DNA from: a virus
Lineage: Duplodnaviria > Caudoviricetes
IMG/VR virus record: IMGVR_UViG_3300037518_000672
Location: 1-54,656 of that record
Strand: one strand, 5' to 3'
DNA length: 54,656 nucleotides
The position numbers were made by a program, and so were the translations under genes. The notes under the pieces are model-generated. The model saw only the letters and a list, made by a program, of their open reading frames with translations. It did no database searches and was not told the DNA's origin. Below, one piece after another: positions 2,405 to 52,596 of this stretch (the first letter of the stretch is position 1; the number at the start of each line of letters is the position of its first letter).

Positions 2405-3899
2405 GCGCCGCCGCCGGCAACAGACCAAAACCTCCCTCGCCGAACTCTACCGGGCTGACCCGGAGGGCTACGCCCGGGACGTTTTAGGGGTCACCTGGTG
2501 GGCCAAACAAATCGAGGTAGCCCGGCTACTCCTGACCCCGCCCTACCGGGTGCTAGTCAAGGCGAGCCACAAGATCGGCAAAACCCACCTCGGCGGCGGC
2601 CTGGTCAACTGGTGGTACGACGTTCACGATCCGGGGCTAACCCTGACCACGGCCCCCAACGTCAGGCAGGTCAAGGATCTACTCTGGAAAGAAGTCCGGG
2701 TTCAGCGCGGCGGTCGCGGTGGCTTTCCCGGCCCGAAGGCGGCCCGGCTAGAAAGCAGCCCGGATCATTTCGCCCACGGCTTCACGGCCCGCGACGGCGA
2801 AAGTTTTCAGGGCAATCACGGCCCGCACGTTTTTATCATCTTCGACGAGGCCGTGGGGGTCGACTCGATATTTTGGGAAACGGCCGAGTCGATGTTCAGC
2901 GGTGAGGGCCACGCCTGGCTGGCTATTTTCAACCCGACCGACACCAGCTCCCAGGCCTATGCCGAGGAGTTGAGCGGCGGTTGGCACTCGGTGACGATCT
3001 CGGCCCTGGAGCATCCCAACATCATCGCCGAGCTGAAGGGCGAGCCGCCGCCGTTCCCGGCCGCCATGCGGCTGGCCAGGGTCGAGTATCTGCTCGGCAA
3101 ATGGTGCCGGCCGGTCGAGGGCAAGCCCAAGGCCACCGACATCGAGTGGCCACCGGGCAGCGGCCAGTATTTGCGACCGGGGCCAATTGCGGAGGCCCGG
3201 CTGCTGGGCCGGTGGCCCTCGCAGGCCACCTACAACGTCTGGAGCGATGCGGTCTGGAGCGAGGCCGAGCTACTGCTCCTGCCGGAGCCGAAAGACAAGC
3301 CGTGCGAGATCGGCTGCGACGTGGCGAGATTTGGCGACGACTTCACCACGATCCACGTTCGGCGCGGCCCGGTCTCGCTGCACCACGAGAGCGTCAATGG
3401 CCGGTCCACCAGCGGGACCGCCGGCCGGCTAAAACAGGTGGCCGACCAGTGGGGCCGGCACTGCGGCCTCGACGGCAAGCGGCTCCTGGTCAAAGTGGAC
3501 GATGACGGCGTTGGCGGCGGGGTGACCGACCAGCGGGGCGATTACAATTTTGTGCCCGTCTCCGGAGCCGGCACCGCGATGGAGCCGGAGGATTATCCCA
3601 ATCGCCGCAGCGAGCTCTGGTTCGCCGTGGCCGAACGGGCCGAGGAGGGCCGCTTGAGCCTGGTCCGGCTGCCAGCAGAGGTACGGCGCGAATTGCGCCG
3701 GCAGGCGATGGCCCCGGTCTGGAAAGTCGATAGCGAGGGCCGGCGGGTGGTCGAGCCAAAAGAGGCCACCAAGAAACGCCTCAAGCGCTCGCCAGACGAC
3801 CTGGACGCCCTAAACCTGGCCTACGCGCCGCCTGGCCACGCGGTTCAAATCCTGGAACATTACCGGCGCAGAGCCGAAGGAACAAAAACCGATGCCTGA
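2367..3899 (+). CDS. terL: Terminase large subunit
   Basis: Walker A-like ASHKIGKT, Walker B IIFDEA, FNP coupling motif, RNase H-like IGCDVARFGDD and SPDDLDAL. Confidence 0.93.
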   Translation: MSFYQQRAAAERERRRRQQTKTSLAELYRADPEGYARDVLGVTWWAKQIEVARLLLTPPYRVLVKASHKIGKTHLGGGLVNWWYDVHDPGLTLTTAPNVRQVKDLLWKEVRVQRGGRGGFPGPKAARLESSPDHFAHGFTARDGESFQGNHGPHVFIIFDEAVGVDSIFWETAESMFSGEGHAWLAIFNPTDTSSQAYAEELSGGWHSVTISALEHPNIIAELKGEPPPFPAAMRLARVEYLLGKWCRPVEGKPKATDIEWPPGSGQYLRPGPIAEARLLGRWPSQATYNVWSDAVWSEAELLLLPEPKDKPCEIGCDVARFGDDFTTIHVRRGPVSLHHESVNGRSTSGTAGRLKQVADQWGRHCGLDGKRLLVKVDDDGVGGGVTDQRGDYNFVPVSGAGTAMEPEDYPNRRSELWFAVAERAEEGRLSLVRLPAEVRRELRRQAMAPVWKVDSEGRRVVEPKEATKKRLKRSPDDLDALNLAYAPPGHAVQILEHYRRRAEGTKTDA

Positions 3900-5811
3900 C
3901 ATTCCCCGAGGTACCACCGTCATAGATCTCCGCGAGGGAGCCAAACGCATCAGCGGGGCCTGGAACGCCCTGCTGGGCCGCCGCTTTGGCCCAGGCCTGC
4001 CCCTCTCGCCCACCACCGGCCAGGAGGAGCAGACCCAGGGACCCCGCCAGTATCAATACCCGGTCGGGGTCAACACCAACTTCATCCCTCGCCGAGACGG
4101 GACCGCCGGCACGCTGACCCCCTTTGAGCAGCTGCGCAACCTGGCCGCGCTCTACGACGTGGCCGCCATGTGCATCGCCACCCGGATCGAGGAGATGCAG
4201 GGCCTGGAGTGGGCGGTGGTGCCTAAAGACAAAAAACGCCAGGAGGAGTTGCAAGACGAGTGTGACGCGGCCACCGATTTTATGCAGCAGCCGGACAAGC
4301 TCAACAAATTCGATGCCTGGCTGGGCATGCTCTTGTACGACCTGTTCAGCATCGACGCCCCGAGCATCTACAAGCGGCTCGACCGGGCCGGTCGGCTGCA
4401 CGCCCTGGAGATCATCGATGGCTCGACGATCAAACCGCTCCTTGATGAGCGGGGCCGGGCGGTGGCCTACCAGCAAATCCTGTACGGCTCACCGGCCAGC
4501 CAATACCGGCGCGAGGGCACCGACGCCCCGGATGAGGAGCTGCCGATCTACGCTCCCCACGAGCTGATCTATCGACCTCGCTGGACCCGCACCTTTACCC
4601 CCTACGGTTTCCCGCCGACCGAGTGGATCATCCTCCGGGTCAACACCGCCTTGCGCAAGCAGGCGTTTGACCTGGCCTATTTCACCGACGGCAACATCCC
4701 CGATATGATCGCCACCCCGCCGGGCGACGCCAAAAACGGCGGCAACCTCAGCCCGGAGCAGGTCGAGCAATTCGAGGAATGGTTTAACGCCATGCTCGAA
4801 GGCAACGACGCGGCCCGGCGCAAGGTCCGGTTTTTGCCCTGGAACATGAACATGAAGGAGTTGCGGCCGTTTAACTATGAGACGATCCTAGACGAGTGGA
4901 TGCTACGGGTCACCTGCGCCGCCTACAGCGTACCGCCCCAGGAACTCGGCTTCACCAACGACGTCAACAAAGGGACCGCCGAGTTGCAGGAGGCCGTCAA
5001 CCAGCGCAAGGGCTTGAAGCCCTTGGCCAATTGGCTCAAGAAAAACTTCTTTAACGATTTTATCCAGCAAGACCTGGCCGCGGCCTGGGGGCCGGGCCGA
5101 CCCGACCAGGCCCTCAGCCTGCCCGGCCAACCGACCCGACCCCCGACCAACCCCTTCAAGCTGGTCGAGTGGGGCTGGCAATTCGGCGATGACGACGACA
5201 AACAAACCCAGGCGGCCACCGACCAGATCTACCACGCCATCGGGGCCGTCTCGGCCAACGAGATCCGGGTGATGCGCTTTGGCGATATCCTCGACGGCGA
5301 CGGACCAGGCGCGCTGGGCATAACCACAACCACGCCGGCCCCGGAGGAGCCAACCCCTCATCAGGTTCGGGATGCAACCCCTGAGCCGGCAGACGCGCCA
5401 CCGGCCGAAGACGCGGTTCAGCCCGCGCCGCCGGTCGCCGCTCGGCCGCCAGAGGTCGACTCCCGGCTGGCTCTCAACGGCGCTCAGGTGCAGGCCGCCC
5501 TGGACATTATGACCCAGGTGCAGGCCGGCCAGTTGGGCTATGAGGCGGCCCGAAATGCCCTCCAGATTTTCTTCAATCTCAGCCCGGAGCAGGCCGAGCG
5601 ATTATTAGCGGCGGGGGCCGACGGCCTGACGGTGACCGAGAAGCTGGCCAAGGCCAGCACTGCCAACGGGCTGGGAGACGACGATCCACTGATCGCGGTC
5701 AAAGGCGAGCAGGCCGAGGCCCTGAAGGGGAAGCTGCTGGAGTATTTCGGCGGGTTGCAGCAGCGGATCGAGAGCGATCCGCCCCGCTCAGGGGGCGACA
5801 ATGCCACCTGA
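3892..5811 (+). CDS. Portal protein with C-terminal extension
   Basis: Follows terL; portal-like motifs (IDGSTIKP, YGFPPTE, YFTDGNIP, AAYSVPPQELG). Confidence 0.88.
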   Translation: MPDIPRGTTVIDLREGAKRISGAWNALLGRRFGPGLPLSPTTGQEEQTQGPRQYQYPVGVNTNFIPRRDGTAGTLTPFEQLRNLAALYDVAAMCIATRIEEMQGLEWAVVPKDKKRQEELQDECDAATDFMQQPDKLNKFDAWLGMLLYDLFSIDAPSIYKRLDRAGRLHALEIIDGSTIKPLLDERGRAVAYQQILYGSPASQYRREGTDAPDEELPIYAPHELIYRPRWTRTFTPYGFPPTEWIILRVNTALRKQAFDLAYFTDGNIPDMIATPPGDAKNGGNLSPEQVEQFEEWFNAMLEGNDAARRKVRFLPWNMNMKELRPFNYETILDEWMLRVTCAAYSVPPQELGFTNDVNKGTAELQEAVNQRKGLKPLANWLKKNFFNDFIQQDLAAAWGPGRPDQALSLPGQPTRPPTNPFKLVEWGWQFGDDDDKQTQAATDQIYHAIGAVSANEIRVMRFGDILDGDGPGALGITTTTPAPEEPTPHQVRDATPEPADAPPAEDAVQPAPPVAARPPEVDSRLALNGAQVQAALDIMTQVQAGQLGYEAARNALQIFFNLSPEQAERLLAAGADGLTVTEKLAKASTANGLGDDDPLIAVKGEQAEALKGKLLEYFGGLQQRIESDPPRSGGDNAT

Positions 5812-6439
5812 TTTTTGGGAGCGAGAGCGAGAGCGACTGCTCGAATTACTGTTCCCGGAGTTGGCGGAGCTGGCCCGGGCCGGGGTCGAGGCCGCGGCCG
5901 AGAAGATCGAGGCGGTGGCCCAGGCGGCTGCGGCCGGCTTCAACCCTACTCTGAGCCACCGGGCCGCGGCCGCCTGGGCCAGAGGGCGGGCCACCGAGCT
6001 GGTCGAGCTGCTCGACGAGACTACTACCAAATCGGTCAACAGTCTCCTGGCTCGCTGGATCGAAACACCCGGCTCGCAACTGGGCGACCTGGTGGAGGAG
6101 CTGACCCCGATCCTGAGCGGCAACGTGGCCCGGGCCGAGCTGATCGCCACCACCGAAACGACCACCGCCTACGCCGAGGGGGAGGCCATCGTCTACCGCG
6201 AGGCCGGGATCCCGGAGCCGGTCTTCAAGCCGGCGGCGCACCCGCGCTGCCGCTGTTGGACCAGTGTACAGCGGGTTCAGGGAAAATTCGTGGTAGTCTG
6301 GCAAACCAACCGCGACGAGCTGGTCTGCGAGGAGCCGATCCAAACGCCCTGGGGCGTCGTCGAGGGCTGCAAAGAGTTGCACACGATGGTCATCTCCGAG
6401 GGGGAGTGGCTGGGCCGGAAGGTGGCCTCACTTGGCTGA
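5801..6439 (+). CDS. Minor head morphogenesis protein (MuF/SPP1 gp7-like)
   Basis: RAELIATTET and AHPRCRC motifs; follows the portal gene. Confidence 0.8.
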   Translation: MPPDFWERERERLLELLFPELAELARAGVEAAAEKIEAVAQAAAAGFNPTLSHRAAAAWARGRATELVELLDETTTKSVNSLLARWIETPGSQLGDLVEELTPILSGNVARAELIATTETTTAYAEGEAIVYREAGIPEPVFKPAAHPRCRCWTSVQRVQGKFVVVWQTNRDELVCEEPIQTPWGVVEGCKELHTMVISEGEWLGRKVASLG

Positions 6440-6935
6440 GATAGACATCAAGGGCCTCCAAGAGTTTGTTGCGGCCATCCAGCGATCGCCGGAGACGGCG
6501 GCGCCGGTCCTGAAAGAGGCCATCGAGCGGGCCCTGCTGCTGGTGGAGGGCGTAGTCAAACAGTACCCGCCGCAGCCGGCCCGGGACCGGGCCAAAACTT
6601 TCAACACCTACGTCCGGGGCCGGGGACATTACCCGCTCTCCGCGTTCAACAGAGGGGGAAAACTCAAACGCGGAGCCAAGCGAGACCCCACCATTCGGCT
6701 GACCTCGGAGCGACTGGGCACGAAATGGACCCACCAGGTCGATTTCGACCAGACCGGGGCTGTCGGCGAGATTGGCAACACGACCAGCTACGCCGACGAG
6801 GTGCAGGGGGAAGGCCAGGCCGATTTTCACGCCGAGACCGGCTGGCCCACCCTGCCGGCCGCGATGGACCAGCAGGAGCAGAATATTTATGACATTTTGG
6901 AGTTGGCCCTGAATGAGATCTTAAAAAAATTATAG
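6432..6935 (+). CDS. Virion morphogenesis protein (HK97 gp10-like)
   Basis: IDIKGLQEF N-terminus and IGNTTSYA motif. Confidence 0.55.
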   Translation: MAEIDIKGLQEFVAAIQRSPETAAPVLKEAIERALLLVEGVVKQYPPQPARDRAKTFNTYVRGRGHYPLSAFNRGGKLKRGAKRDPTIRLTSERLGTKWTHQVDFDQTGAVGEIGNTTSYADEVQGEGQADFHAETGWPTLPAAMDQQEQNIYDILELALNEILKKL

Positions 6936-6953
6936 ATTAGCCAGGAGGAAAAA

Positions 6954-7136
6954 ATGATTAACGAGTTACTGGAAAGTAAAAAGTTTTGGATGATGGTGGT
7001 CGGGCTGGTGATTATCGCCACCAATCGCTACGGGTTGGAGCTGGACGCCGACCAACTCTTCGGCGTAGCCCTGACCATCGTGGGCTACTTGACCGGCCAG
7101 GGCCTGGCCGATTTCAGCAAAGAGAAGCAGCCGTAG
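6954..7136 (+). CDS. Small two-TM protein (holin-like)
   Basis: SKKFW-hydrophobic...GQGLADF; strong AGGAGG RBS. Confidence 0.6.
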   Translation: MINELLESKKFWMMVVGLVIIATNRYGLELDADQLFGVALTIVGYLTGQGLADFSKEKQP

Positions 7137-7148
7137 CGGAGGCTAAAT

Positions 7149-7697
7149 ATGCAATCATACGAACCAATGAACGTACTCCCGAATGAATTTCAGCGGGACT
7201 GGCAAGCGGAGTTGCGGCCGGCGGAGGACCACCCGGCCGGGGTGTTTCGGCTGGTGGCGATCAGACGAACGGAGGGCGGAGGCTTCGAGGGGCAGCGGGT
7301 GACGGTGCTGCTGCTCGATGAGGATGGGCAGGCGCTGCCGAGCGTGCCGGTAGCCTTCAGCTATTCCACGGCCCGGCAGTATATTGTGGGGCCAGAGTTC
7401 ACCTGGCGGCCACCCACGCCCCGCCGGGCCGATGTGTTTGCAACCCAGGGCGGGGGACAGATCGACCACGTCCAAGGCAGCGTGGTCAAGGCCGGTCAAC
7501 CAGGTGGGATCACGGCGTATGTGTTATCGCCGCTGTACGCCAGCGATGTGGTTAGCGGGCTGGGCATGCTGGCCGACCACTCTGGCGTTCACCTGACCTT
7601 CCAGTTGCGGCGGGTGGGGGTGGTGCCGCTGGGGGAGCGCCTGGCCAGCATCGAGGCGCGGCTGGCGGCGCTGGAAGCGGGGGGCAACCCCGCGTAG
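7149..7697 (+). CDS. Hypothetical protein (beta-rich, C-terminal coiled coil)
   Basis: GGAGG RBS; follows the holin-like gene. Confidence 0.65.
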   Translation: MQSYEPMNVLPNEFQRDWQAELRPAEDHPAGVFRLVAIRRTEGGGFEGQRVTVLLLDEDGQALPSVPVAFSYSTARQYIVGPEFTWRPPTPRRADVFATQGGGQIDHVQGSVVKAGQPGGITAYVLSPLYASDVVSGLGMLADHSGVHLTFQLRRVGVVPLGERLASIEARLAALEAGGNPA

Positions 7698-7700
7698 ATT

Positions 7701-7892
7701 TTACCTTCGCCTTGGGTCCCTCGGCGCTCTTCCTTCGTTGCGGGATTTGTAGTCTTCCAGGCTGGCCGGGTCAATCATCCAGGCCGGGCCAAACTTCTCC
7801 GCCTTGATTGAGCCGCGCTTGATCAGGCGAATGATCGTGAATGAGTTAACGCCTAAAAAATCTGCGGCCTGCTGCCTTGTCATTGGTTTCAA
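7701..7892 (-). CDS. Excisionase-like HTH (HTH_17/MerR-like) DNA-binding protein
   Basis: MTRQQAADFLGVNSFTIIRLIKRGSIKAEKFG.W.I; GGAGG 7 nt before TTG 7892 (alternative ATG 7883). Confidence 0.8.
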   Translation of the reverse strand: MKPMTRQQAADFLGVNSFTIIRLIKRGSIKAEKFGPAWMIDPASLEDYKSRNEGRAPRDPRRR

Positions 7893-7904
7893 GATTACCC
7901 CTCC

Positions 7905-8072
7905 CTCCTGACCCACGCGCTCCCCTAACCCACGAGCGCGTGGGGTGAACGACTGCCCCGGCTTTTTAATTTTGAGGAAACCCCCCTGACCCACGCGCTT
8001 GTGGGGCGAACGCCAGGAGGAAAGAAATGGTAAACGAACTATTCCCCTGACCCACGCGCTTGTGGGGCGAAC
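7905..8072 (-). CRISPR. Mini CRISPR-like array: three 29-nt repeats, two 32-nt spacers and a truncated terminal repeat
   Basis: Identical repeats GTTCGCCCCACAAGCGCGTGGGTCAGGGG (- strand) at 8044-8072 and 7983-8011; degenerate copy at 7922-7950; 17-nt remnant at 7905-7921; spacers at 8012-8043 and 7951-7982. Confidence 0.88.
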
Positions 8073-8176
8073 CCCAAACCACGAAGTTCACATTTTCCTG
8101 CTTCATCGCCCCGCTAATGCTAAAGGCTCCACAGGCGTTTAGTTACTCTCCGCCCAGGTAGTACGGCGAGTTTTAT
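8073..8176 (-). ncRNA. TnpB omega-RNA (reRNA) scaffold, possibly acting as tracrRNA
   Basis: Directly 3' of the tnpB stop; contains GCCTGTGGAG (8136-8127) and GATGAAGCAGGAA (8107-8095), typical of tnpB-downstream RNAs; boundaries approximate. Confidence 0.7.
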
Positions 8177-9337
8177 TCATCCTTCCCCTAAAATCCTCAG
8201 CGCTTCATCCCGAATGTTGAGCGCCGCGTTGCCGTCTCTATGGTTGATTGTTCCGCAGCCTTCGCAGGGCCATTCGCGGTCGGATAGCTTCAAGTCGGCT
8301 TTAATCCAACCGCAAACGTTGCACGCTTTTGAAGAACAAAACCACTGGCCAACCGGAACAACTATGCCGCCATTCCAGGCCGCCTTGTACTCCAATTGTC
8401 TACGCTTCTCAAACATCGCCGCATCACTCACCGCTTTTGCCAGGTGGCGATTTTTCACCATCCCTTTAACATTCAAGGTTTCAACCCCGATAATCCCGTA
8501 ATCTCTGGCGATTTGGGTGGTCATTTGGTGACTGGCCTCATCGCGGATACAAGCTATTTTATAATGCAGCTTGGCTATTTTTTCCTTCATCTTGAGCCAG
8601 TTCTTTCCACCCTTCTCCATTCGGGCAAAAGAACGTTGTAGCCGTCTTAGCTTGCGCTTCATCTGCTCAGTAGCTTTTGGGTTCTCAAAAATTTGGCCGT
8701 CGCTGGTCACGGCGAGATACTTAACCCCAAGATCAACCCCTACCGCTTCGTCATTGTGGCCCGGTACCTCCTGCTTGACCTCGACCTGCACCGATAGCCA
8801 CCAATGCCCGGCCCGGTAGACGATACGCCCGCCCATCACCTTGCCGTCAAAGCGGAGCGGTTCGGCCATATTGACCCAACCAACGCGGGCCTTGTCAAAC
8901 CAAAATTGGCTATCACTGAAATGCATAATCGCATTGTGTATATAAAATGCCGGGGTTGATTTGTGGCGGCTCTTGAAACGAGGCCAGCCGAACGGCTTGC
9001 CGTCTTTTCGAGGCTTCCAACCGGCAGGCGGCTTTAGCAATCCCTTTTTGTGCTTGTTAAAGAAATTCCTAAATGATTTTTCCAGATCATCAAAAGCCCC
9101 CACCATTGCCCACGACGTAACCTCAGATGCCCAAGGGAATTGCTCCGCTTTGATCGCGTTAAACTCTTCTCTAAGCAGTCGCCCGCTTACCTTTTCTTTT
9201 GCCTCTAACCGGCGGTTATATTCGGCCAAGCCCCAGTTGAAGCAAAATCTAGCGACGCCAGCTGCCCGCCAAAAATAGGCGGCTTGTTCCGGCGTTGGGT
9301 TCAGCCTTATCTTATGAGCTTTAATCACTGTATCCAT
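8177..9337 (-). CDS. tnpB: RNA-guided nuclease TnpB (Cas12f-like), 386 aa, catalytically intact
   Basis: HKIRLNPTPEQ N-terminus; RuvC D (VGVDLG), E (GVETL), D (HRDGNAALNI); CxxC...CxxC Zn finger; ATG 9337 lies 7 nt after a -10 box. Confidence 0.93.
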   Translation of the reverse strand: MDTVIKAHKIRLNPTPEQAAYFWRAAGVARFCFNWGLAEYNRRLEAKEKVSGRLLREEFNAIKAEQFPWASEVTSWAMVGAFDDLEKSFRNFFNKHKKGLLKPPAGWKPRKDGKPFGWPRFKSRHKSTPAFYIHNAIMHFSDSQFWFDKARVGWVNMAEPLRFDGKVMGGRIVYRAGHWWLSVQVEVKQEVPGHNDEAVGVDLGVKYLAVTSDGQIFENPKATEQMKRKLRRLQRSFARMEKGGKNWLKMKEKIAKLHYKIACIRDEASHQMTTQIARDYGIIGVETLNVKGMVKNRHLAKAVSDAAMFEKRRQLEYKAAWNGGIVVPVGQWFCSSKACNVCGWIKADLKLSDREWPCEGCGTINHRDGNAALNIRDEALRILGEG

Positions 9338-9344
9338 AAATCGA

Positions 9345-9373
9345 ATTGTACTACAAAAAATAAGACTTGCCAA
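9345..9373 (-). promoter_or_regulatory. Sigma70-like promoter for a leaderless tnpB transcript
   Basis: TTGGCA-17 nt-TACAAT; ATG 7 nt downstream and no RBS. Confidence 0.7.
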
Positions 9374-9420
9374 ATACCCTTGACAAGCCGCGCGAGACGG
9401 CCCGGCAGCAGGTCTCAATT

Positions 9421-9465
9421 TTGCCTAAATTGACAATTGAGCGGCCACCGAAAAAATGATAGGAT
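9421..9465 (+). promoter_or_regulatory. Head-operon promoter with a conserved upstream motif
   Basis: TTGCCTAAATTGACAATTGA is identical to 53021-53040; TTGAGC-17-TAGGAT. Confidence 0.6.
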
Positions 9466-9505
9466 AGGATCGCGGGCCATGCGATCCTCGGCCCAACAGT
9501 TTTTA

Positions 9506-9557
9506 GCCCGACAGAGCGCGAGCCGGGGCAGTCTTTTTGAGACCGCCCCGGCTTTTT
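9506..9557 (+). terminator. Leader terminator with conserved upstream motif (putative antitermination switch 1)
   Basis: GCCCGACAGAG..CCGGGGCAGTC; hairpin 9521-9553 followed by a T-run. Confidence 0.6.
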
Positions 9558-9574
9558 GATTTTGAGGAAAACCG

Positions 9575-11209
9575 ATGCCAGACCAACTGACCCCAGGTGC
9601 GACCGCCTGGATTGGCTTTTTTCTACCACCCGAGGTGGCCCAGCCGTTGGCCCTGGCCGGCGGCGAGCCGGCCAGCGAGCTACATCTGACTCTGGCCTTC
9701 TTGGGAGATGCCGACAAATTAGATCTGGACCGGCTGAAGGAGGGCCTGGCCCTGTGGGGCAAGAACCAAATCCCCATCAGTGGTCGGATCAGCGGGGTGG
9801 GCCGTTTCAACGAAACCGGCGAGGAGGGCCAGCACGCCTTTTATGCCTCGGTCGATGCGCCCGGCCTGGCCCGTTTCCGACAAAATCTGGTCAACGAGCT
9901 AGACTGGCTCGACTGCCCGGCCGACCGAACTCACGGCTACACCCCCCACATTACCCTGCAATACCTCCCGGCCGGCGATCCCTCGCCGCTAACCAGCCTG
10001 GAGCGGATTTTCGAGGTCGAGCTCGACACAATGACCCTGGTCATCAGCGAGCCACCTGTCGCCGACAGCGACCGGCGCGAGCTGCGCCGGATCGAGTACC
10101 AACTGACCGGCGGCCCGGTCGAGAAAACGCAGGCGGCCGGCTTCGGCGTGAGCGCTCAGTCGAACGGCCAGTGGACCCGCTTTGCCAAGATCGACAGCCT
10201 CGACGCCGAAGAGCGAATGATCTACGGCGTCGCCGCGACCGAGGAACCCGACGATCAGGCGGGGGTCTGGGAAGGCCGGAAATACGAGGGCGATATCGTG
10301 ACCATCGAGGCCATCGAGGAGGCCCTGCCCGACTATCTGAAATGGGCCAACATCCGGGAGATGCACCAGCCCTCGGCTGTGGGCACGACCCTGGAGACCG
10401 AGATCAAGGACCGTAAGCTCCACATCGGGGTCAGGATCGTGGACGGGCCGGCCTGGGAAAAAGTGAAAGAAAAGGTCTACCGCGGCTTCTCGGTCGGCGG
10501 CCAGGTCCTCAAGGCCAAACTAGTGGAGATCGGCGGCAAAATCTACCGCAAGATCTTAAAACTCAAACTCTATGAAATTTCATTGGTGGATCGGCCCGCG
10601 AATGGCGGCTCCGAAATTTTACTATTCAAGCTCTCTACGGAGGAAACGATGGCAACAGACAACAAAGACAAAAAGCCCGCGGCGGCCAACTCGGACGGCG
10701 GGGCCGGCGACAAAGCGGCCCAGGCCCTCACCATGCTCCAGGAACTGCGCGACGAATGCGAGCGCAGCGGGGATATGGCCGGGGCCGGCAAGTACGGCCG
10801 GGCCATTGCCTTGATGATCGGCGAGGCCGAGGGGTCGATAGCGGCCGGCGAAGGCGTGGAAGACGACGAAGTGCAACTGAGCCAAAAGAGCGGCGACCTG
10901 CAAAAGGCCATCAAGCCCGCTTTGGACGGCCTGGCTAAGGCCATTCAAGACGGCCTGGCCGAGCAATTCAAGACGCTCGATGAGCGGCTGGCCAATATCG
11001 AGGCCCAACCGGCCGCCGGCGGCCCCAGCCTGCGCCAGGCCGAGAAGCCTGCGCCGGGCCAGCAAAAACCGGCCCGCCAGGATCCCGCCTTCACCAAAGG
11101 GCAACTGGGCGACCTCAAGCAAAAGGCATCGACGGAGCCGAACCCGGCCCTGCGGGCTCAGTACCAGCAGCAGTACATCCACATTCTGGAATCAGCGGTC
11201 GCCGCCTAA
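9575..11209 (+). CDS. 2H phosphoesterase domain fused to prohead protease and scaffold region
   Basis: HLTL and HITL motifs in the first ~160 aa; IREMH, YRGFSVGG, EISLVDRPAN protease motifs; acidic helical C-terminus; precedes the capsid gene. Confidence 0.85.
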   Translation: MPDQLTPGATAWIGFFLPPEVAQPLALAGGEPASELHLTLAFLGDADKLDLDRLKEGLALWGKNQIPISGRISGVGRFNETGEEGQHAFYASVDAPGLARFRQNLVNELDWLDCPADRTHGYTPHITLQYLPAGDPSPLTSLERIFEVELDTMTLVISEPPVADSDRRELRRIEYQLTGGPVEKTQAAGFGVSAQSNGQWTRFAKIDSLDAEERMIYGVAATEEPDDQAGVWEGRKYEGDIVTIEAIEEALPDYLKWANIREMHQPSAVGTTLETEIKDRKLHIGVRIVDGPAWEKVKEKVYRGFSVGGQVLKAKLVEIGGKIYRKILKLKLYEISLVDRPANGGSEILLFKLSTEETMATDNKDKKPAAANSDGGAGDKAAQALTMLQELRDECERSGDMAGAGKYGRAIALMIGEAEGSIAAGEGVEDDEVQLSQKSGDLQKAIKPALDGLAKAIQDGLAEQFKTLDERLANIEAQPAAGGPSLRQAEKPAPGQQKPARQDPAFTKGQLGDLKQKASTEPNPALRAQYQQQYIHILESAVAA

Positions 11210-32662: not shown

Positions 32663-33730
32663 TCATGACTTTTTCTTGAACACGCGGTTCGCCCGCTTGA
32701 GGGCTCCCCAGGCGATGCTGGCCACCGGATCGCTCGGAATGTGGGCGGTGGGGTAGTGGCGCAGGATCGAGCCGCGATAGGCGGCGGACCCGCCCCCGGC
32801 AAAGATGATTTTGTAGAATTGGCGGCCGTTGCCCCAGTGACCGCTGAGGAACTCACTGGCGTCAGACCATAGCTCTTGCAGGGCCTGCTCGACGATGGCC
32901 GACAGGTCGACGTCGCCGGCAGCGCAGGCGTGAAACACTGCCCCGGTTTTGAGGTAGGCCCGCATCAGGCTGTCGGCCTCGTGCAGGCTGACCTCAACCT
33001 GGTGCGTCTGACGCAGGTGGGCCGAGATAGCCCGGGCCACCCGGTGCATGCCCAGATCGCGGCCGGCGGTGTAGCGCTCGGCGATCTCGCCGCCCTCGAT
33101 CCCAAACAGGTCGAGGGTCTTAAAGCCGATGTCGGCCACGGCCACCGGTTTGCGCAGGGCCTCGCGGTCGCGGATCCACTCGCCCTGCCAGTTCATCCCC
33201 CAGTCGAGGTAGGCACAAACCGGCTGCGAGACAGCCTTGATGCGGGCGATGTCGGTGGCCACCGGCCGGCCATCGATGCTGAACTGGTGCGGCCCGCCCA
33301 GCCAGCCGCTGAGGGTGCGCAGGGTGGAGCGGGCCAGCTCCGCGTTCTGGGTGATCTCCACCGGCAGGCAGACCATCAGGTCCGTCTGGGTGGAGCGGCC
33401 ATTGAGGCTGGTGCCCAGGGCGGCGTAGATCAGAGCCCGGTTAAACAGGCCCTCGCTGAGCCGGCTGAAACCCAGGTCCTCGATGGGCCGGGTGTGGCGG
33501 TAGACGTTCTCGCCGACCAGGTAGCTGTAGTCCTCCCAGGCCACCTGATAGGGCCGGGTTTTTCGCTGCCGGCGGCCCAGGCCCATCGCGCTCAGATCGC
33601 CCAGCCCGCCCAGCCCGGCCACGCTGGGGATGATTTGGGTTTGGGCCTGGCCCTGCTCGTTCAGCCAGGCTGTTTTCATGCTGCTGAAGGCCACGTCAAT
33701 GGCCCGTTTGACTCTAGTGGTGTCCATCAT
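32663..33730 (-). CDS. ParM/StbA-family actin-like ATPase
   Basis: AIDVAFSSMK, IIPSVAG, VADIGFKTLD and IFAGGGS actin-fold motifs. Confidence 0.85.
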   Translation of the reverse strand: MMDTTRVKRAIDVAFSSMKTAWLNEQGQAQTQIIPSVAGLGGLGDLSAMGLGRRQRKTRPYQVAWEDYSYLVGENVYRHTRPIEDLGFSRLSEGLFNRALIYAALGTSLNGRSTQTDLMVCLPVEITQNAELARSTLRTLSGWLGGPHQFSIDGRPVATDIARIKAVSQPVCAYLDWGMNWQGEWIRDREALRKPVAVADIGFKTLDLFGIEGGEIAERYTAGRDLGMHRVARAISAHLRQTHQVEVSLHEADSLMRAYLKTGAVFHACAAGDVDLSAIVEQALQELWSDASEFLSGHWGNGRQFYKIIFAGGGSAAYRGSILRHYPTAHIPSDPVASIAWGALKRANRVFKKKS

Positions 33731-39099: not shown

Positions 39100-39975
39100 T
39101 CAGGCTGCCTTTCTGAGTTGGCCCGCTTCGGCCAGCTCGACCATATGCTGAACGAACTCGTAGGGACCGGGGCAGCGCCAGCAGTGCTGACCCAGGCCGT
39201 CGAGCCGGCAGCCGTCACACAATGTTTTTTGGGCGATGTCGTGAATTTTATCGCGGGGCAGCTCGCCGCCGGCGTGGTGGCCGTTGCCGTTGACCACGGT
39301 CAGGGTAGGCCGGCGGCGCGGCTCAGGCGGGACCTCGGCCCCATCCAGGGCCGGCAGTTGCCTGGCTATGAAAGCGCATTGCCGGCAAATGCTCTTGAGC
39401 GAGGTGCTATTGCGGGCGAAGCGCTGGGCCAACTCCAGCCGTTTGGCCTGGTCGGGTACGCGCGACAAAGCCCGGGCCGCCCTGGGATCGGGCGAGAGCT
39501 TTCCCTCGCTGATCAGGTGCTGGATGTCCTCATCCAGCTCGAGCAGCCTCAGTACATTGTAGATCTTGCTGGGACTCTCCCCGGTGCGCTCGGCGATCAA
39601 CCCGACCGGCATGAGTTCCTCGTCTCTCAGGCGGCGGTAATGCAGGCCCCGCGAGATCGGGTCCTTGGGGTAATGGCGCTCGCTGGTGATGGCCATTATC
39701 AGCATTTGTTCGGCCTCGTCGGCTTTGAGGATCTCGCACTTGAGTGGGGGACACTCATCCCCCAGCCGACGACCGCCGGCCAGCCGCATGTTACCGTCAA
39801 CGACGTGGTAGTTGCCGGGCTGATCGGGGATGGCCACTACCAGCATGGCCTGGTAAACGCCGTTGTTAGCTTTGATCGAGGCGGCCATCTCGGCCACGTC
39901 CGCCTCGGGGTAGAAGCGGCGGATGTTCTCGGGATGGATCTTCAACTTGGTGTGCCGTAGATAAGTCAGTGACAT
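39100..39975 (-). CDS. ParB/RepB/Spo0J family protein
   Basis: HPENIRR, VVDGNMRL, HTH IAERTGESPSKI. Confidence 0.85.
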   Translation of the reverse strand: MSLTYLRHTKLKIHPENIRRFYPEADVAEMAASIKANNGVYQAMLVVAIPDQPGNYHVVDGNMRLAGGRRLGDECPPLKCEILKADEAEQMLIMAITSERHYPKDPISRGLHYRRLRDEELMPVGLIAERTGESPSKIYNVLRLLELDEDIQHLISEGKLSPDPRAARALSRVPDQAKRLELAQRFARNSTSLKSICRQCAFIARQLPALDGAEVPPEPRRRPTLTVVNGNGHHAGGELPRDKIHDIAQKTLCDGCRLDGLGQHCWRCPGPYEFVQHMVELAEAGQLRKAA

Positions 39976-49845: not shown

Positions 49846-49983
49846 ATGGTCAGAATAAATATCTACATCCTCAAAGAGCAATACGAACAACTGAAAAAAT
49901 TAGCTACGAGTCGAATCAAGGTGTCCGAACATATTCGCCGGGCCATCGATGACTACCTGGAGAAATGTAAACCAAGTGAGTAA
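49846..49983 (+). CDS. CopG/RHH DNA-binding protein, 45 aa (below ORF-track cutoff)
   Basis: MVRINIYILKEQYEQLKKLA...VSEHIRRAIDDYL. Confidence 0.8.
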   Translation: MVRINIYILKEQYEQLKKLATSRIKVSEHIRRAIDDYLEKCKPSE

Positions 49984-51376
49984 AGTCACCCGAATTGCCT
50001 ATGGTGCAAATCTGAACCAGGGCAAGCACGACCAGTTAGCTGAGATAGCCGACCGTCTCGGCTTGCTCCGGTCTGAGGTATGGCAGCGATATGGGTCTAT
50101 CGCCGGGGTAGGTTTGACTGATCGCAAAATTCGGGATCAATGGTTAGCCGAAGGCAGGCGTTTTGATATTCCGGCCAGGCTATGGAAAGAAACCCTGCGG
50201 GTCACCATTGCAGACATTACCGCCTATCGAGAGGCGGCTAAGGTTGAGGTGAGGCAGGCTATCAGGCGACATACCAGCGACGAACAGGAACAAAAGCGAC
50301 TGTATACCTTACTCAAGTACGACCGATGGACAGAAGATAGTTACTTGCGCCGCCAGATGCGGGAACATTTCAAGCACGGACAAACCCAGGTGGACAATCA
50401 AATCGTGCTTGATTCCGACTGCTATACCACCTTTGAGTTGAACGGAAAGACTTGGCTCAAGGTGATGGGCCCGGTATCTGGTCAAAGAATAACTATCCCC
50501 CTAAATACCAATATCGAAATATCGGGTTCGATTCGGTTGATCCTGAGAGATGGACGAATCGAAGTTCACTATGCGGTCGAAGAAAGTTCCGTTTGCGTCA
50601 CCCGGCCTTGTGGGGACAAGACGCTTGGGATTGACAAGGGGTATACCGAAGTCTATGTCGATTCGGATGGGGACCGGCATGGCGAGGGGTTGGGAAAAAC
50701 CCTATCTACGGAATCAGATTATCTCAAGGTCAAATATCAGCGACGTAACAAGCTCAAGGCGATTGCTGATAAGAAGCCTCGTAAACGAGACAAGATACTC
50801 AAGAACAATCTTGGCCGAAAGAAGCTGGATCAACGCAAGAAACAACACCGGCAGAAAGTTCGGGACAAGATATACAAGGCCACCCATTCCGTAGTAGACA
50901 AAGCCAGACAGGTTGTATGTGAAGACCTGCCCGGCCTGATTGTCGGCAAGTCGTTTGGTAAAAATCAGAATCGACGGCTATCCGGTTGGGTCAAAGGGAT
51001 AATGGCCGAGTCTTTAGAAGCGGTAACCCGGCGCAGAGGTTCTGCGCCTTTAGCATTGGTCAACGCGGCCTACAGTTCGCAAACAGATTCGAGATACGGC
51101 GTCTTGCTTGGAGAGCGTCGTGGGGATCGGTTTTACTGTTTTGACGGGGTGCTGTTGGACGCTGACCACAATGCTGCTTTGAATTTGCTGGCAAGATTAG
51201 ATGATCCTGAGATTGGACGGTTTACGCCGTACAAACAGGTGAAGTCTATTTTGCTGGCACGAACAAAGCAATTCACGGTTGATACTGGATCAACCCAGGC
51301 TCTAGTTGCAGCGGCCCAAGATGCACCGTCGCTATCAACAGAGTGCGAATTACCTTTTTTGATTAACTTTGGCTAA
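49976..51376 (+). CDS. tnpB: TnpB-family RNA-guided nuclease (second, divergent copy)
   Basis: RuvC D (GIDKG), E (VCEDL), D (DADHNAALN); Zn finger degenerate; start GTG 49976 or ATG 49949. Confidence 0.85.
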   Translation: MSKVTRIAYGANLNQGKHDQLAEIADRLGLLRSEVWQRYGSIAGVGLTDRKIRDQWLAEGRRFDIPARLWKETLRVTIADITAYREAAKVEVRQAIRRHTSDEQEQKRLYTLLKYDRWTEDSYLRRQMREHFKHGQTQVDNQIVLDSDCYTTFELNGKTWLKVMGPVSGQRITIPLNTNIEISGSIRLILRDGRIEVHYAVEESSVCVTRPCGDKTLGIDKGYTEVYVDSDGDRHGEGLGKTLSTESDYLKVKYQRRNKLKAIADKKPRKRDKILKNNLGRKKLDQRKKQHRQKVRDKIYKATHSVVDKARQVVCEDLPGLIVGKSFGKNQNRRLSGWVKGIMAESLEAVTRRRGSAPLALVNAAYSSQTDSRYGVLLGERRGDRFYCFDGVLLDADHNAALNLLARLDDPEIGRFTPYKQVKSILLARTKQFTVDTGSTQALVAAAQDAPSLSTECELPFLINFG

Positions 51377-51503
51377 GAAAAAAGGAACAGCGCAGCCGCA
51401 AAGCCACGGATTGGTATCCCGGCGAGGACGAATGGGAAGCCGAGGAGCATTTGCAAAGTTAAAGCCCCCCGGCCCAATTTAGACCTATAAGGTTTGCGAA
51501 ACC

Positions 51504-52520
51504 TTATAGGTCTTTTAGATCCGGCCCATAGCGGCCGTGGGCCTCTTGCAGCTCGGCGGTGTTAAAGCGGGCGTAGATTTTGGTCACATCCGTGGTGCTG
51601 TGGCCCATCAAGTCGGAGAGCTGCACGGTGGGGATGCCCTTGAGGGTGGTGTCTCGCCCGAACGCATGCCGCCAGGCATGCGGGCTGAAGGCGTCTTCGT
51701 CCAGGCCGGCCCGCTCGGCTACTCGTCTGAAGACGAGATAAATGCCGTTATAGGTCAGCGGCCCCTGGTGGCCCTGAAAGACGGCGTCGCCGGGGCCGGC
51801 CCGTTTCAGGCTGGCCCGGTAGGCGGTCAGGGCCTGGGCCGTGGGCGCCCGAAAAAAAGCGGGTCGGTGTTTGCCCCCTTTGCCCACGAGGTGAGCCTTG
51901 TTTTCCTCAAGGAAAACATTTCCCCAGGTCAACCCCTCGGCCTCGATGGCCCGACAGCCGGTGTCGCGGAAAAATAGCAGCAGCGCCCGCTCGCGGTCAT
52001 CCTCGACGGCCTCGATCATCTGCTCGATGTGAGCCCGGGTAATCGCCTTGGGCGGTGCATCCTGGGGCAATTTGGGCGGGTGGATGCTGGTCATCGGATC
52101 TGAGCCCAGATAATTCTGCTCGAACAGCCAGCGGCCAAAGCGGGTCAAAATGTGATAGTGCCCCTTGAGGGTGTAGGGCGACCAGCCGCGCCCCTTCAGG
52201 CTGGCCCAGTAGGCCAGCCAGGTCTCGCCGGCTTCGAGGCCGGCGCCGGTTCGGACCAGCCACTCCCCGAATTGCCCCAGCCGATTACGGTAGCCCTTGA
52301 GCGTGACCGGCCGCAAATCCTCGTTGATATCCAGGTAGATCAAAAACTGAGCGATCAGGCCCGGCACATCCAGAGCCGGGCCGCCGGGATCGGGGCCGAG
52401 CGTGTATTCCAACTGCTGGCCGTTGGGCAGCGCCAGGATGATCGAGCGGCACCCCGGCGGCAGGCTGGACAGGTCGATCTTGAGATGGTGGCCATTGAAG
52501 ACAAAATTCACGTTGAACAT
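51504..52520 (-). CDS. Tyrosine integrase (core-binding + catalytic domains)
   Basis: DTGCR, GKGGK, HAWRH, MGH, IY. Confidence 0.9.
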   Translation of the reverse strand: MFNVNFVFNGHHLKIDLSSLPPGCRSIILALPNGQQLEYTLGPDPGGPALDVPGLIAQFLIYLDINEDLRPVTLKGYRNRLGQFGEWLVRTGAGLEAGETWLAYWASLKGRGWSPYTLKGHYHILTRFGRWLFEQNYLGSDPMTSIHPPKLPQDAPPKAITRAHIEQMIEAVEDDRERALLLFFRDTGCRAIEAEGLTWGNVFLEENKAHLVGKGGKHRPAFFRAPTAQALTAYRASLKRAGPGDAVFQGHQGPLTYNGIYLVFRRVAERAGLDEDAFSPHAWRHAFGRDTTLKGIPTVQLSDLMGHSTTDVTKIYARFNTAELQEAHGRYGPDLKDL

Positions 52521-52596
52521 GCGTTCCCCTTTTCTTGGTGGTTGATTTAGAAAAATGCCTCGACCGGGTATAATCACTAGAGCAAGGGGTGATTTG

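Follow-up and report, generated by a model that had tools for sequence, protein, structure and literature searches.

A phage tnpB gene whose predicted guide-RNA scaffold leads directly into a mini-array with near-self spacers

A cassette located within the head-gene module of a Caudoviricetes genome (IMG/VR record IMGVR_UViG_3300037518_000672) encodes an intact TnpB, an RNA-guided nuclease, and directly behind the tnpB gene, on the same strand, a putative guide-RNA scaffold runs into a short CRISPR-like array of repeats and spacers. The 54,656 bp analysed, referred to here as the window, make up a complete viral contig with direct terminal repeats. The fusion of the array to the TnpB guide-RNA scaffold is the most informative feature of the locus, and it was overlooked in an initial annotation made from the sequence alone, which had drawn attention to the resemblance of two spacers to sequences on either side of the cassette. 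The interpretation favoured here, tentatively and with somewhat less than even confidence, is that the cassette is a phage TnpB module in which an extension of the right-end guide RNA gave rise to a mini-array, in the manner of the so-called transposon-CRISPR intermediates (TranC) reportedly described by Jin et al. in 2025, and that the array is aimed at related phages.

The tnpB gene (8177-9337, minus strand) encodes a nuclease of 386 amino acids (aa) with an intact RuvC D-E-D triad and a CxxC...CxxC zinc finger. The Pfam domains OrfB_IS605 (PF01385), Cas12f1-like_TNB (PF07282) and HTH_OrfB_IS605 (PF12323) are recognized, and the NCBIfam model guided_TnpB is matched at 280.7 bits (cut-off 100). 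Full-length matches in PDB are ISDra2 TnpB (8H1J/8BF8) with an expectation value (E) of 1e-56 and the IS607 TnpB of ISFba1 (8IAZ, 387 aa) with E 2e-43. The D, E and D residues correspond in the alignment to the catalytic ones of ISDra2 TnpB, and both CxxC pairs are conserved; the alignment ends before the C-terminal tail of ISDra2 TnpB, which is absent here. In ISFba1 TnpB the AGGAG motif is read by K80 and K83, and because these residues align with W and V in the phage protein, its target-adjacent motif is probably different. The best relatives in a large protein collection are 75-50% identical and lie on metagenome contigs, with 6773 of 8000 scored candidates at E <=1e-20; one relative, 58% identical and found in an Anaerolineae metagenome-assembled genome, is named an IS607-family transposase by NCBI. 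Between 7700 and 9520 there is no transposase open reading frame (ORF), the sole neighbour being a 60-aa HTH_17 protein, and a search of the phage genome for Cas1, Cas2 and Cas6e found none of them. Just upstream of the tnpB ATG lies a sigma-70-like promoter candidate (TTGGCA-17-TACAAT; 9345-9373, minus strand), recognized by consensus match only (10/12). Its -10 hexamer ends 8 nucleotides (nt) before the start codon (ATG at 9337), and the tnpB mRNA may, judging from this spacing, be leaderless.

The mini-array (7922-8072, minus strand) was delimited by a repeat search; its repeats, three in number and 29 nt long, recur every 61 nt and enclose two 32-nt spacers. The array begins 104 nt past the tnpB stop codon, and along the minus strand tnpB is followed by these 104 nt, the first repeat (R3, 8072-8044), spacer 2 (8043-8012), a second repeat (R2, 8011-7983), spacer 1 (7982-7951), a degenerate terminal repeat (R1, 7950-7922; 79% identity over a 33-nt register), a half repeat (7903-7921) that corresponds to the 3′ half and abuts the terminal repeat, and finally the gene of the HTH_17 protein. 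The full repeats each fold as a 5-bp hairpin followed by 7 nt. With the degenerate repeat at the far end and a promoter-like site just upstream of tnpB, the arrangement fits transcription from the minus strand.

The putative scaffold spans about 8190 to 8044 (minus strand) and contains an element resembling the RAGATH-18 kink-turn stem of TnpB right-end (omega) RNA (8095-8135, minus strand; Rfam RF03064, 29.8 bits, E 0.0026). RAGATH-18 RNAs make up the core part of IS607 TnpB right-end guide RNAs. For ISFba1, PMC11061315 places the element at -51 to -122 from the guide and finds the last 21 nt ahead of the guide dispensable. From the end of the element in the phage (8095) to the start of spacer 2 (8043) there is a 51-nt gap, made up of a 22-nt tail and the 29-nt R3, which compares with 50 nt in ISFba1. 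RNAfold predicts that the kink-turn stem is followed by hairpin 1, then hairpin 2, then a linker of 7 nt. Hairpin 1 (8067-8091, minus strand) consists of 10 bp around a 5-nt loop; its 5′ strand (8091-8082) falls within the scaffold and its 3′ strand (8076-8067) is composed of the last 4 nt of the scaffold tail and the first 6 nt of R3, while hairpin 2 is the stem-loop of R3 itself. Only 27 of 2000 shuffled tails folded as well with R3. Since R3 is predicted to complete the scaffold in this way, with a gap close to that of ISFba1, spacer 2 falls where a guide would lie. The 5′ strand of hairpin 1 could at the same time act as an anti-repeat to the 5′ end of the repeat, its complementarity being 10 of 10 positions in cis, 9 of 10 in trans in the R2 context and 7 of 10 in the R1 context; such short anti-repeats serve to define the trans-activating CRISPR RNAs (tracrRNAs) of compact type V systems (bioRxiv 10.64898/2026.03.27.714800). 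A further sequence, L100, carries two copies of a RAGATH-18-type element (34.8 bits) of the same compact form, which remain alike for about 51-55 nt beyond the element and for which the same two-hairpin, 51-nt architecture is predicted.

Arrays placed behind a TnpB guide-RNA scaffold recur in other phages. The best 80 of 128 viral TnpB loci were surveyed (exact-word scan of the 80, mismatch-tolerant scan of 23), and six loci from two lineages have an array adjoining TnpB, directly behind a guide-RNA scaffold and on the same strand. Six other flagged loci were examined, and the larger repeat clusters, present in four of them, read as simple or tandem repeats rather than arrays. Five of the array-bearing loci (L030-L033 and L099) come from one phage group, whose TnpB is 37% identical to that of the window over most of its length, the match of L099 covering the C-terminal part only (46% identity). 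Here the array has 29-nt repeats and 32-34-nt spacers and begins 59 nt past the tnpB stop codon, on the same strand, and near-identical phage variants (the L030/L032 group) have two versus four spacers with none in common. An IMG/VR contig of 143,142 bp (G001) contains two roughly 70-kb variants of one phage, L030 and L032, with nearly identical TnpB, and is probably a concatenated assembly of two strains.

The sixth locus, L037 (record G005), encodes a TnpB of 399 aa that is 36% identical to that of the window and has the order scaffold copy, three-repeat array, tnpB. The non-coding scaffold copy (2705-2793) is about 70% identical to the right-end RNA of the phage's own TnpB (4091-4179), and tblastn detected no coding similarity in it; the changes in its stems look compensatory in an alignment that was judged by eye and not counted. 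Its end carries a 7-nt anti-repeat complementary to the 3′ end of the repeat, a pairing equalled by 15 of 500 shuffles, and the equivalent pairing in L031 is equalled by 19 of 500. The region 2705-2975 of L037 looks like a natural tracrRNA-array-effector locus built from TnpB. In a quick tree of 71 rows, from which nine identical duplicates and one short row had been dropped, L037 groups with L030-L033 (Shimodaira-Hasegawa-like approximate likelihood ratio test support 89, long branches) and the window TnpB falls elsewhere; at least two changes of the array label are needed on this tree, and a single origin is compatible with it. A scaffold followed by an array is thus found in three phage lineages, the window included, and chance insertion beside a host-type array explains this poorly.

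Both spacers resemble sequences of the phage itself, one on each side of the cassette. Spacer 1 matches 9541-9572 (plus strand) at 29 of 32 positions, as the initial annotation had reported, and this is the sole other site in the window with three or fewer mismatches; no shuffled version of the spacer (0/100) gave two matches at that threshold. Spacer 2 has no ungapped match in the window at three or fewer mismatches, and a gapped alignment places it on 6940-6970 (plus strand) with five substitutions and a 1-nt indel. This alignment too had been proposed earlier and holds up: the local alignment scores are 26 for spacer 1 and 19 for spacer 2, against shuffle maxima of 15 and 15 (30 shuffled spacers each). 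The self site of spacer 1 extends over a terminator's 3′ arm and T-tract as well as the ribosome-binding site belonging to the gene at 9575-11209, so that its former description as a terminator arm and ribosome-binding site stands, with the T-tract added and the gene, previously called a prohead protease, refined to a fused LigT-like/prohead-protease/scaffold gene. The self site of spacer 2 covers the ribosome-binding site and the first five to six codons of the gene at 6954-7136, which encodes a holin-like protein. In both cases the homology ends at the spacer borders, which argues for true spacers and not a recombination scar. The borders of the cassette were placed at about 7680 (left) and about 9406 (right) from contigs of a relative together with a drop in G+C content, and the self sites lie about 710 nt outside the left and about 136 nt outside the right of these apparent borders; the claim that the targets bracket the cassette is therefore correct as to the two sides, though the bracketing is uneven. 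The chance that two random sites would both lie within 1.6 kb of the array is about 0.003. Type I-E CRISPR systems prime the acquisition of a second spacer from a first, and if acquisition was primed in this way one coincidence, of about 0.06, is enough.

The differences between the spacers and the self sites look, from their nature, like divergence between orthologues. Spacer 2 reads MVNEL in the frame in which the phage gene reads MINEL, and in the holin-like frame four of its five substitutions are either synonymous or, as with I to V, conservative, the fifth lying in the cut sixth codon where it cannot be classed. Spacer 1 has the base that allows perfect pairing with the phage's own 5′ terminator arm, where the phage's own 3′ copy gives an A-C mismatch. 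The view that the diverged spacers represent an orthologous allele, put forward on the grounds of spacer 2, therefore gains the terminator-pairing base of spacer 1. On the guide strand the mismatches to self fall at positions 2, 15 and 29 of spacer 1 and at positions 2, 5, 6, 12 and 14, together with the indel, of spacer 2. Seed positions are among them, and the resident genome should consequently escape TnpB or the Cascade complex of a type I-E system; for ISFba1 TnpB, single mismatches at guide positions 1-13 are reported to abolish cleavage (PMC11061315).

Sequence data sets provide a partial view of relatives and of the phage population. A blastn search with 6400-10400 gave no match among 50,697 phage records, and phage relatives detected via the head protease do not exceed 52% identity in their best segment, so that synteny is not comparable. 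A soil run from a different study (X3) contains Logan contigs on the flanks of the cassette, at 5218-6404, 7418-7639, 9406-9604 and 9840-10971, with 12-35 other letters per piece. Over 9406-9604 it differs at 20 of 199 letters, which makes it a roughly 90% identical relative, and this divergence is of the same order as that between the spacers and self. One 409-nt contig of X3 fits 9406-9604 and then continues for 210 nt unlike the window; X3 leaves 8042-9211 uncovered and the sides of its listed joints are shorter than 30, and no cassette-free allele is claimed from it. A second sediment run (X2) has pieces identical to the window, tnpB included, and none of the runs listed as containing the phage sequence is an RNA run. 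In the source sample (X1) the Logan contigs break at 8011|8012 and 8043|8044, exactly at the repeat-spacer borders, and a 92-nt bridging contig (7982-8073, 30-nt overlaps) has a depth of 6.0 compared with 11.7 and 12.6 on either side. Logan uses 31-letter words, and with repeats of 29 nt a single genome should not branch at these breaks. The assembly graph hints that part of the phage population may lack spacer 2 or have another spacer at the scaffold-proximal position.

The favoured reading, a TnpB module with its right-end guide RNA extended into an array, can be put as a series of steps. A single minus-strand transcript would contain tnpB, the scaffold, R3, spacer 2, R2, spacer 1 and R1. 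In this transcript R3 would complete the scaffold by supplying the 3′ strand of hairpin 1, hairpin 2 and the 7-nt linker, and TnpB would use spacer 2 in cis. Use of spacer 1 would call either for the scaffold to be paired in trans through its 6-9-bp anti-repeat or for loss of the R3-spacer 2 unit. Both spacers would have been taken from a close relative of the phage, at sites on either side of the accessory locus, and their capture would probably be the work of host Cas1-Cas2 with type I-E geometry. During co-infection the spacers would direct cutting of that relative, to the exclusion of a competitor, and the resident phage would be spared by the seed mismatches.

Several observations weigh against this reading. 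The score of the RAGATH-18-like element (29.8 bits) is below the Rfam gathering score of 44.9, and TnpB itself scores higher against ISDra2 (195.8 bits) than against ISFba1 (152.2 bits). In the ISDra2-like relatives (L039, L058 and L037's TnpB) the tail is 32 nt long, with one 10-bp hairpin and a linker of 7 nt, and under such a one-hairpin model the guide would start inside R3 and not at spacer 2. The duplex energy of the repeat with the upstream scaffold is no better than that of shuffled repeats (91/200 and 334/500), and hairpin 1 provides the sole anti-repeat, a short strand of 6-10 bp. The sequences 5′ of the two self sites, read on the guide strand, are GCATCG and CTTTCC, with only TC at -3 and -2 in common. 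To date only this phage shows the near-self pattern, against 0 of 8 spacers in the other array-bearing phages: the eight spacers of L030, L031 and L037 match nothing beyond the arrays themselves in G001 (143 kb), G005 (85 kb) or the window, other hits being of 19 nt or less. The core sequences of the spacers found no perfect protospacer in IMG/VR, nor did that of spacer 1 in JGI metagenome contigs, and the target phage is accordingly hypothetical. The earlier suggestion that the guides target related phages thus has in its favour spacers that are sharply bounded and diverged and a relative in X3, and lacks the perfect protospacer that was sought. The metagenome search did return two unrelated low-G+C contigs (L108 and L109), which were rejected as targets of spacer 1 because only a terminator-like 23-30 nt is in common. 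Finally, a 29-nt repeat with a 32-nt spacer is type I-E array geometry, and the spacers could serve host Cascade instead of TnpB.

This last point leads to the most substantial rival, in which the locus is a viral mini-array that relies on a host type I-E system: Cas6e and Cascade-Cas3 would process and use both spacers, and TnpB would merely lie upstream, as a source of transcription or through insertion of an insertion sequence (IS). It is possible, and on balance unlikely. Besides the repeat and spacer lengths, the stem-loop with a 7-nt tail and the degenerate leader-distal repeat conform to type I-E, and a G at -1 of the self site of spacer 1 is what the last base of the repeat predicts for capture in the I-E style. 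As Cas1, Cas2 and Cas6e are missing from the phage, any adaptation needs host enzymes, and viral mini-arrays of one or two spacers against related viruses are established (PMC11656645). A host array with this repeat was nevertheless sought in vain: an exact-match search for the repeat pattern, with 18 bases specified, across 185,579 species genomes (a scan limited by hosts missing from that set) gave 10 single hits, none of them an array and none near TnpB, the exact repeat core was not found in IMG/VR, and no Rfam CRISPR repeat family matched the locus at E <=10. The locus has no adjacent cas genes. The self flanks TCG and TCC are unlike the AAG-type motif of E. coli type I-E. The same-strand adjacency of scaffold and array in three phage lineages is also left unexplained by a host-run array, as are the free-standing scaffold copy and anti-repeat of L037. 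Both TnpB and a host type I-E system remain candidate effectors, especially for spacer 1.

The mismatches to self can also be read as the trace of an accident, in which spacers were captured from the phage's own lineage and the survivors carry escape mutations at both sites, leaving an array with no current function. Both sites do lie in the phage's own genome and near the array, the self copy of spacer 1 has a terminator-weakening base such as an escape change would produce, and escape within a coding region would also show synonymous changes. One seed change suffices for escape, however, and spacer 2 differs at six places. The scaffold-proximal position of the array moreover seems variable in the population, related systems show turnover of their arrays, and tnpB and its scaffold are intact, all of which makes a relic of self capture quite improbable.

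An equally low probability is given to self-regulation, in which the array transcript, or guide complexes that pair partially, would act on the phage's own late genes. Both self sites cover ribosome-binding sites, that of spacer 1 also covering the 3′ arm of a terminator, and as RNA from the minus strand the spacers are antisense to the plus-strand mRNAs. The spacers are predicted to form strong RNA-RNA duplexes with mRNA of the phage itself, of -51.9 kcal/mol in the case of spacer 1 and -31.5 kcal/mol in that of spacer 2 (medians of shuffles -13.0 for both, minima -22.3 and -24.0), and phage-encoded, TnpB-derived RNA-guided repressors are known. The known repressor derivatives (TldR-like) have an inactivated or truncated RuvC, however, and here the nuclease is intact. 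In the transcribed orientation the mismatches lie in the flank-proximal seed. Repression of the phage's own genes by DNA binding, the alternative offered in the initial annotation, is disfavoured on account of the intact RuvC triad and the mismatched seeds. A regulatory effect through antisense RNA pairing with the phage's own mRNAs is possible in light of the predicted energies; the accumulated differences, six of them in spacer 2 with the indel counted, argue against selection for self pairing, and an antisense RNA has no need of precise 29/32 repeat-spacer framing.

A further possibility, improbable yet somewhat less so than the two preceding, is that the cassette is an RNA-guided homing element or gene drive, which would cut relatives on both sides of the locus and be copied into them by repair, together with the genes between the cuts. 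The mismatched self alleles would then represent immunity, and the advantage would lie with spacers close to the cassette, which maximise co-conversion. Transposon homing guided by TnpB has been described (Meers et al. 2023): an RNA-guided cut at the element-free site is repaired by recombination from the element-bearing copy, which spreads or retains the element. In that process the canonical guide is the DNA flanking the right end, and self is protected as the insertion splits motif and target, whereas here the guides would be captured spacers that correspond to sites 136 nt and 710 nt from the borders, and protection of self would depend on mismatches.

Four other ideas were considered and rejected. 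TnpB guided by the repeats against host arrays would lead the phage to cut itself, since R2 and R3 share their context. The spacers are not former insertion flanks, as an element abutting 9572 would part the ribosome-binding site from its start codon, and single-crossover integration through spacer homology is contradicted by non-homologous flanks beside the spacers. A target-adjacent motif of the AGGAG type is absent 5′ of either self site on the guide strand.

Phage mini-arrays against relatives (PMC11656645) and a TnpB-sized phage TranC (bioRxiv 10.64898/2026.03.27.714800) are already known. The latter (clade 9, CauTranC9) comes from a Caudoviricetes genome, and its spacers are directed against phages. 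Clade 9 resembles the phage locus in having a TnpB-sized effector (mean 414 aa, compared with 386 aa here) without the ISDra2 C-terminal tail, a short CRISPR array beside the effector in a phage, a guide RNA apparently derived from transposon right-end RNA, and a proposed role in conflict between phages; the likeness is one of description and not of sequence. The repeats of the TranC systems in that account are longer, 38 bp in clade 9 and 32-36 bp in other clades against 29 nt here, and the phage locus differs further in having only two spacers and in a first repeat that is still covalently part of the scaffold, so that the RNA looks half split. ISFba1 shares with the phage locus the size of its TnpB, the intact RuvC triad and a putative RAGATH-18-like kink-turn stem; unlike ISFba1, the phage cassette has no tnpA and no recognisable transposon ends, and a repeat-spacer array takes the place of the single flank-derived guide. 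Viral mini-CRISPR arrays act in conflicts between viruses (Medvedeva 2019, Faure 2019, via PMC11656645), and the phage array is like them in its small number of spacers (one or two), in the apparent kinship of these with sequences of close viruses and in the lack of adaptation genes in the virus. In that same account the viral arrays have repeats identical to those of host arrays and rely on host Cas proteins, while the present search yielded no host array, a TnpB scaffold is fused to the array, and the only matches found are diverged ones to the carrier's own genome. Distinct to the present locus are thus the 29-nt type I-E-like repeats, the first repeat embedded in the scaffold, and near-self spacers from both sides of the cassette.

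The cassette lies in the head-gene module and shows a local fall in G+C, which across 7700-9500 is 47-57%, down from about 65%. The portal gene (3892-5811) is followed by a head-morphogenesis gene (5801-6439), an ORF of 167 aa and the gene of the holin-like protein, a small membrane protein of 60 aa (6954-7136, plus strand) assigned by a weak PHROG holin match (E 6.5e-5). This protein has no Pfam or NCBIfam match, and in a search of 5.8 billion proteins it was its own only relative. Between it and the cassette lies an ORF of 182 aa with no assigned function (7149-7697, plus strand) that has zero matches in Pfam, NCBIfam and PHROG. The 60-aa HTH_17 protein (7701-7883, minus strand; start codon checked) is of the excisionase type (Pfam HTH_17 E 2.4e-8; NCBIfam excisionase domain); its gene lies downstream of the array on the same strand, and its ribosome-binding site overlaps the half repeat at 7903-7921. 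To the right of the cassette, the product of the fused gene (9575-11209, plus strand) has an N-terminal 2H phosphoesterase domain (LigT / 2′-5′ RNA ligase-like, residues 28-139) ahead of an S78 prohead-protease domain, an unusual fusion. The terminator-like hairpin in front of it (9521-9553, plus strand) is an inverted repeat with 14-nt arms that are 93% complementary, and spacer 1 RNA would be antisense to its 3′ arm. Upstream of this hairpin a promoter scan placed a promoter-like site (TTGACA-16-AAAAAT; 9430-9457, plus strand), so that the stretch 9430-9574 (plus strand) holds a promoter-like site, a small hairpin, and the terminator hairpin with its T-tract directly before the head genes; this layout resembles that of an antitermination-controlled late operon.

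Elsewhere in the window, a ParM/ALP actin-like protein (32663-33730), a ParB-HTH (helix-turn-helix) protein (39100-39975) and a tyrosine integrase (51504-52577), all encoded on the minus strand, suggest a temperate or plasmid-like lifestyle. A second, very divergent ORF of the TnpB family (475 aa; 49949-51376, plus strand) matches Pfam Cas12f1-like TNB at E 2.7e-6 and NCBIfam guided_TnpB at 81 bits, under the cut-off of 100; it has no PDB sequence match and no array nearby. Downstream of it are a perfect 15-nt palindrome (51481-51513) and then the convergent tyrosine integrase gene.

If host Cascade works the array, only its unusual neighbour sets the locus apart from ordinary viral mini-arrays. 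If TnpB reads it, the locus is a step between the fixed guide of a transposon and a CRISPR array: an unmodified 386-aa nuclease would have its first repeat, R3, within the scaffold, and further guides would apparently have been added with type I-E geometry. In that case the proposed origin of type V arrays would become testable in a natural system, which would also be a very compact multi-guide nuclease. The presence of near-self spacers from both sides of the cassette raises the prospect that phages may use RNA-guided nucleases in the way that T4-like phages use protein homing endonucleases.

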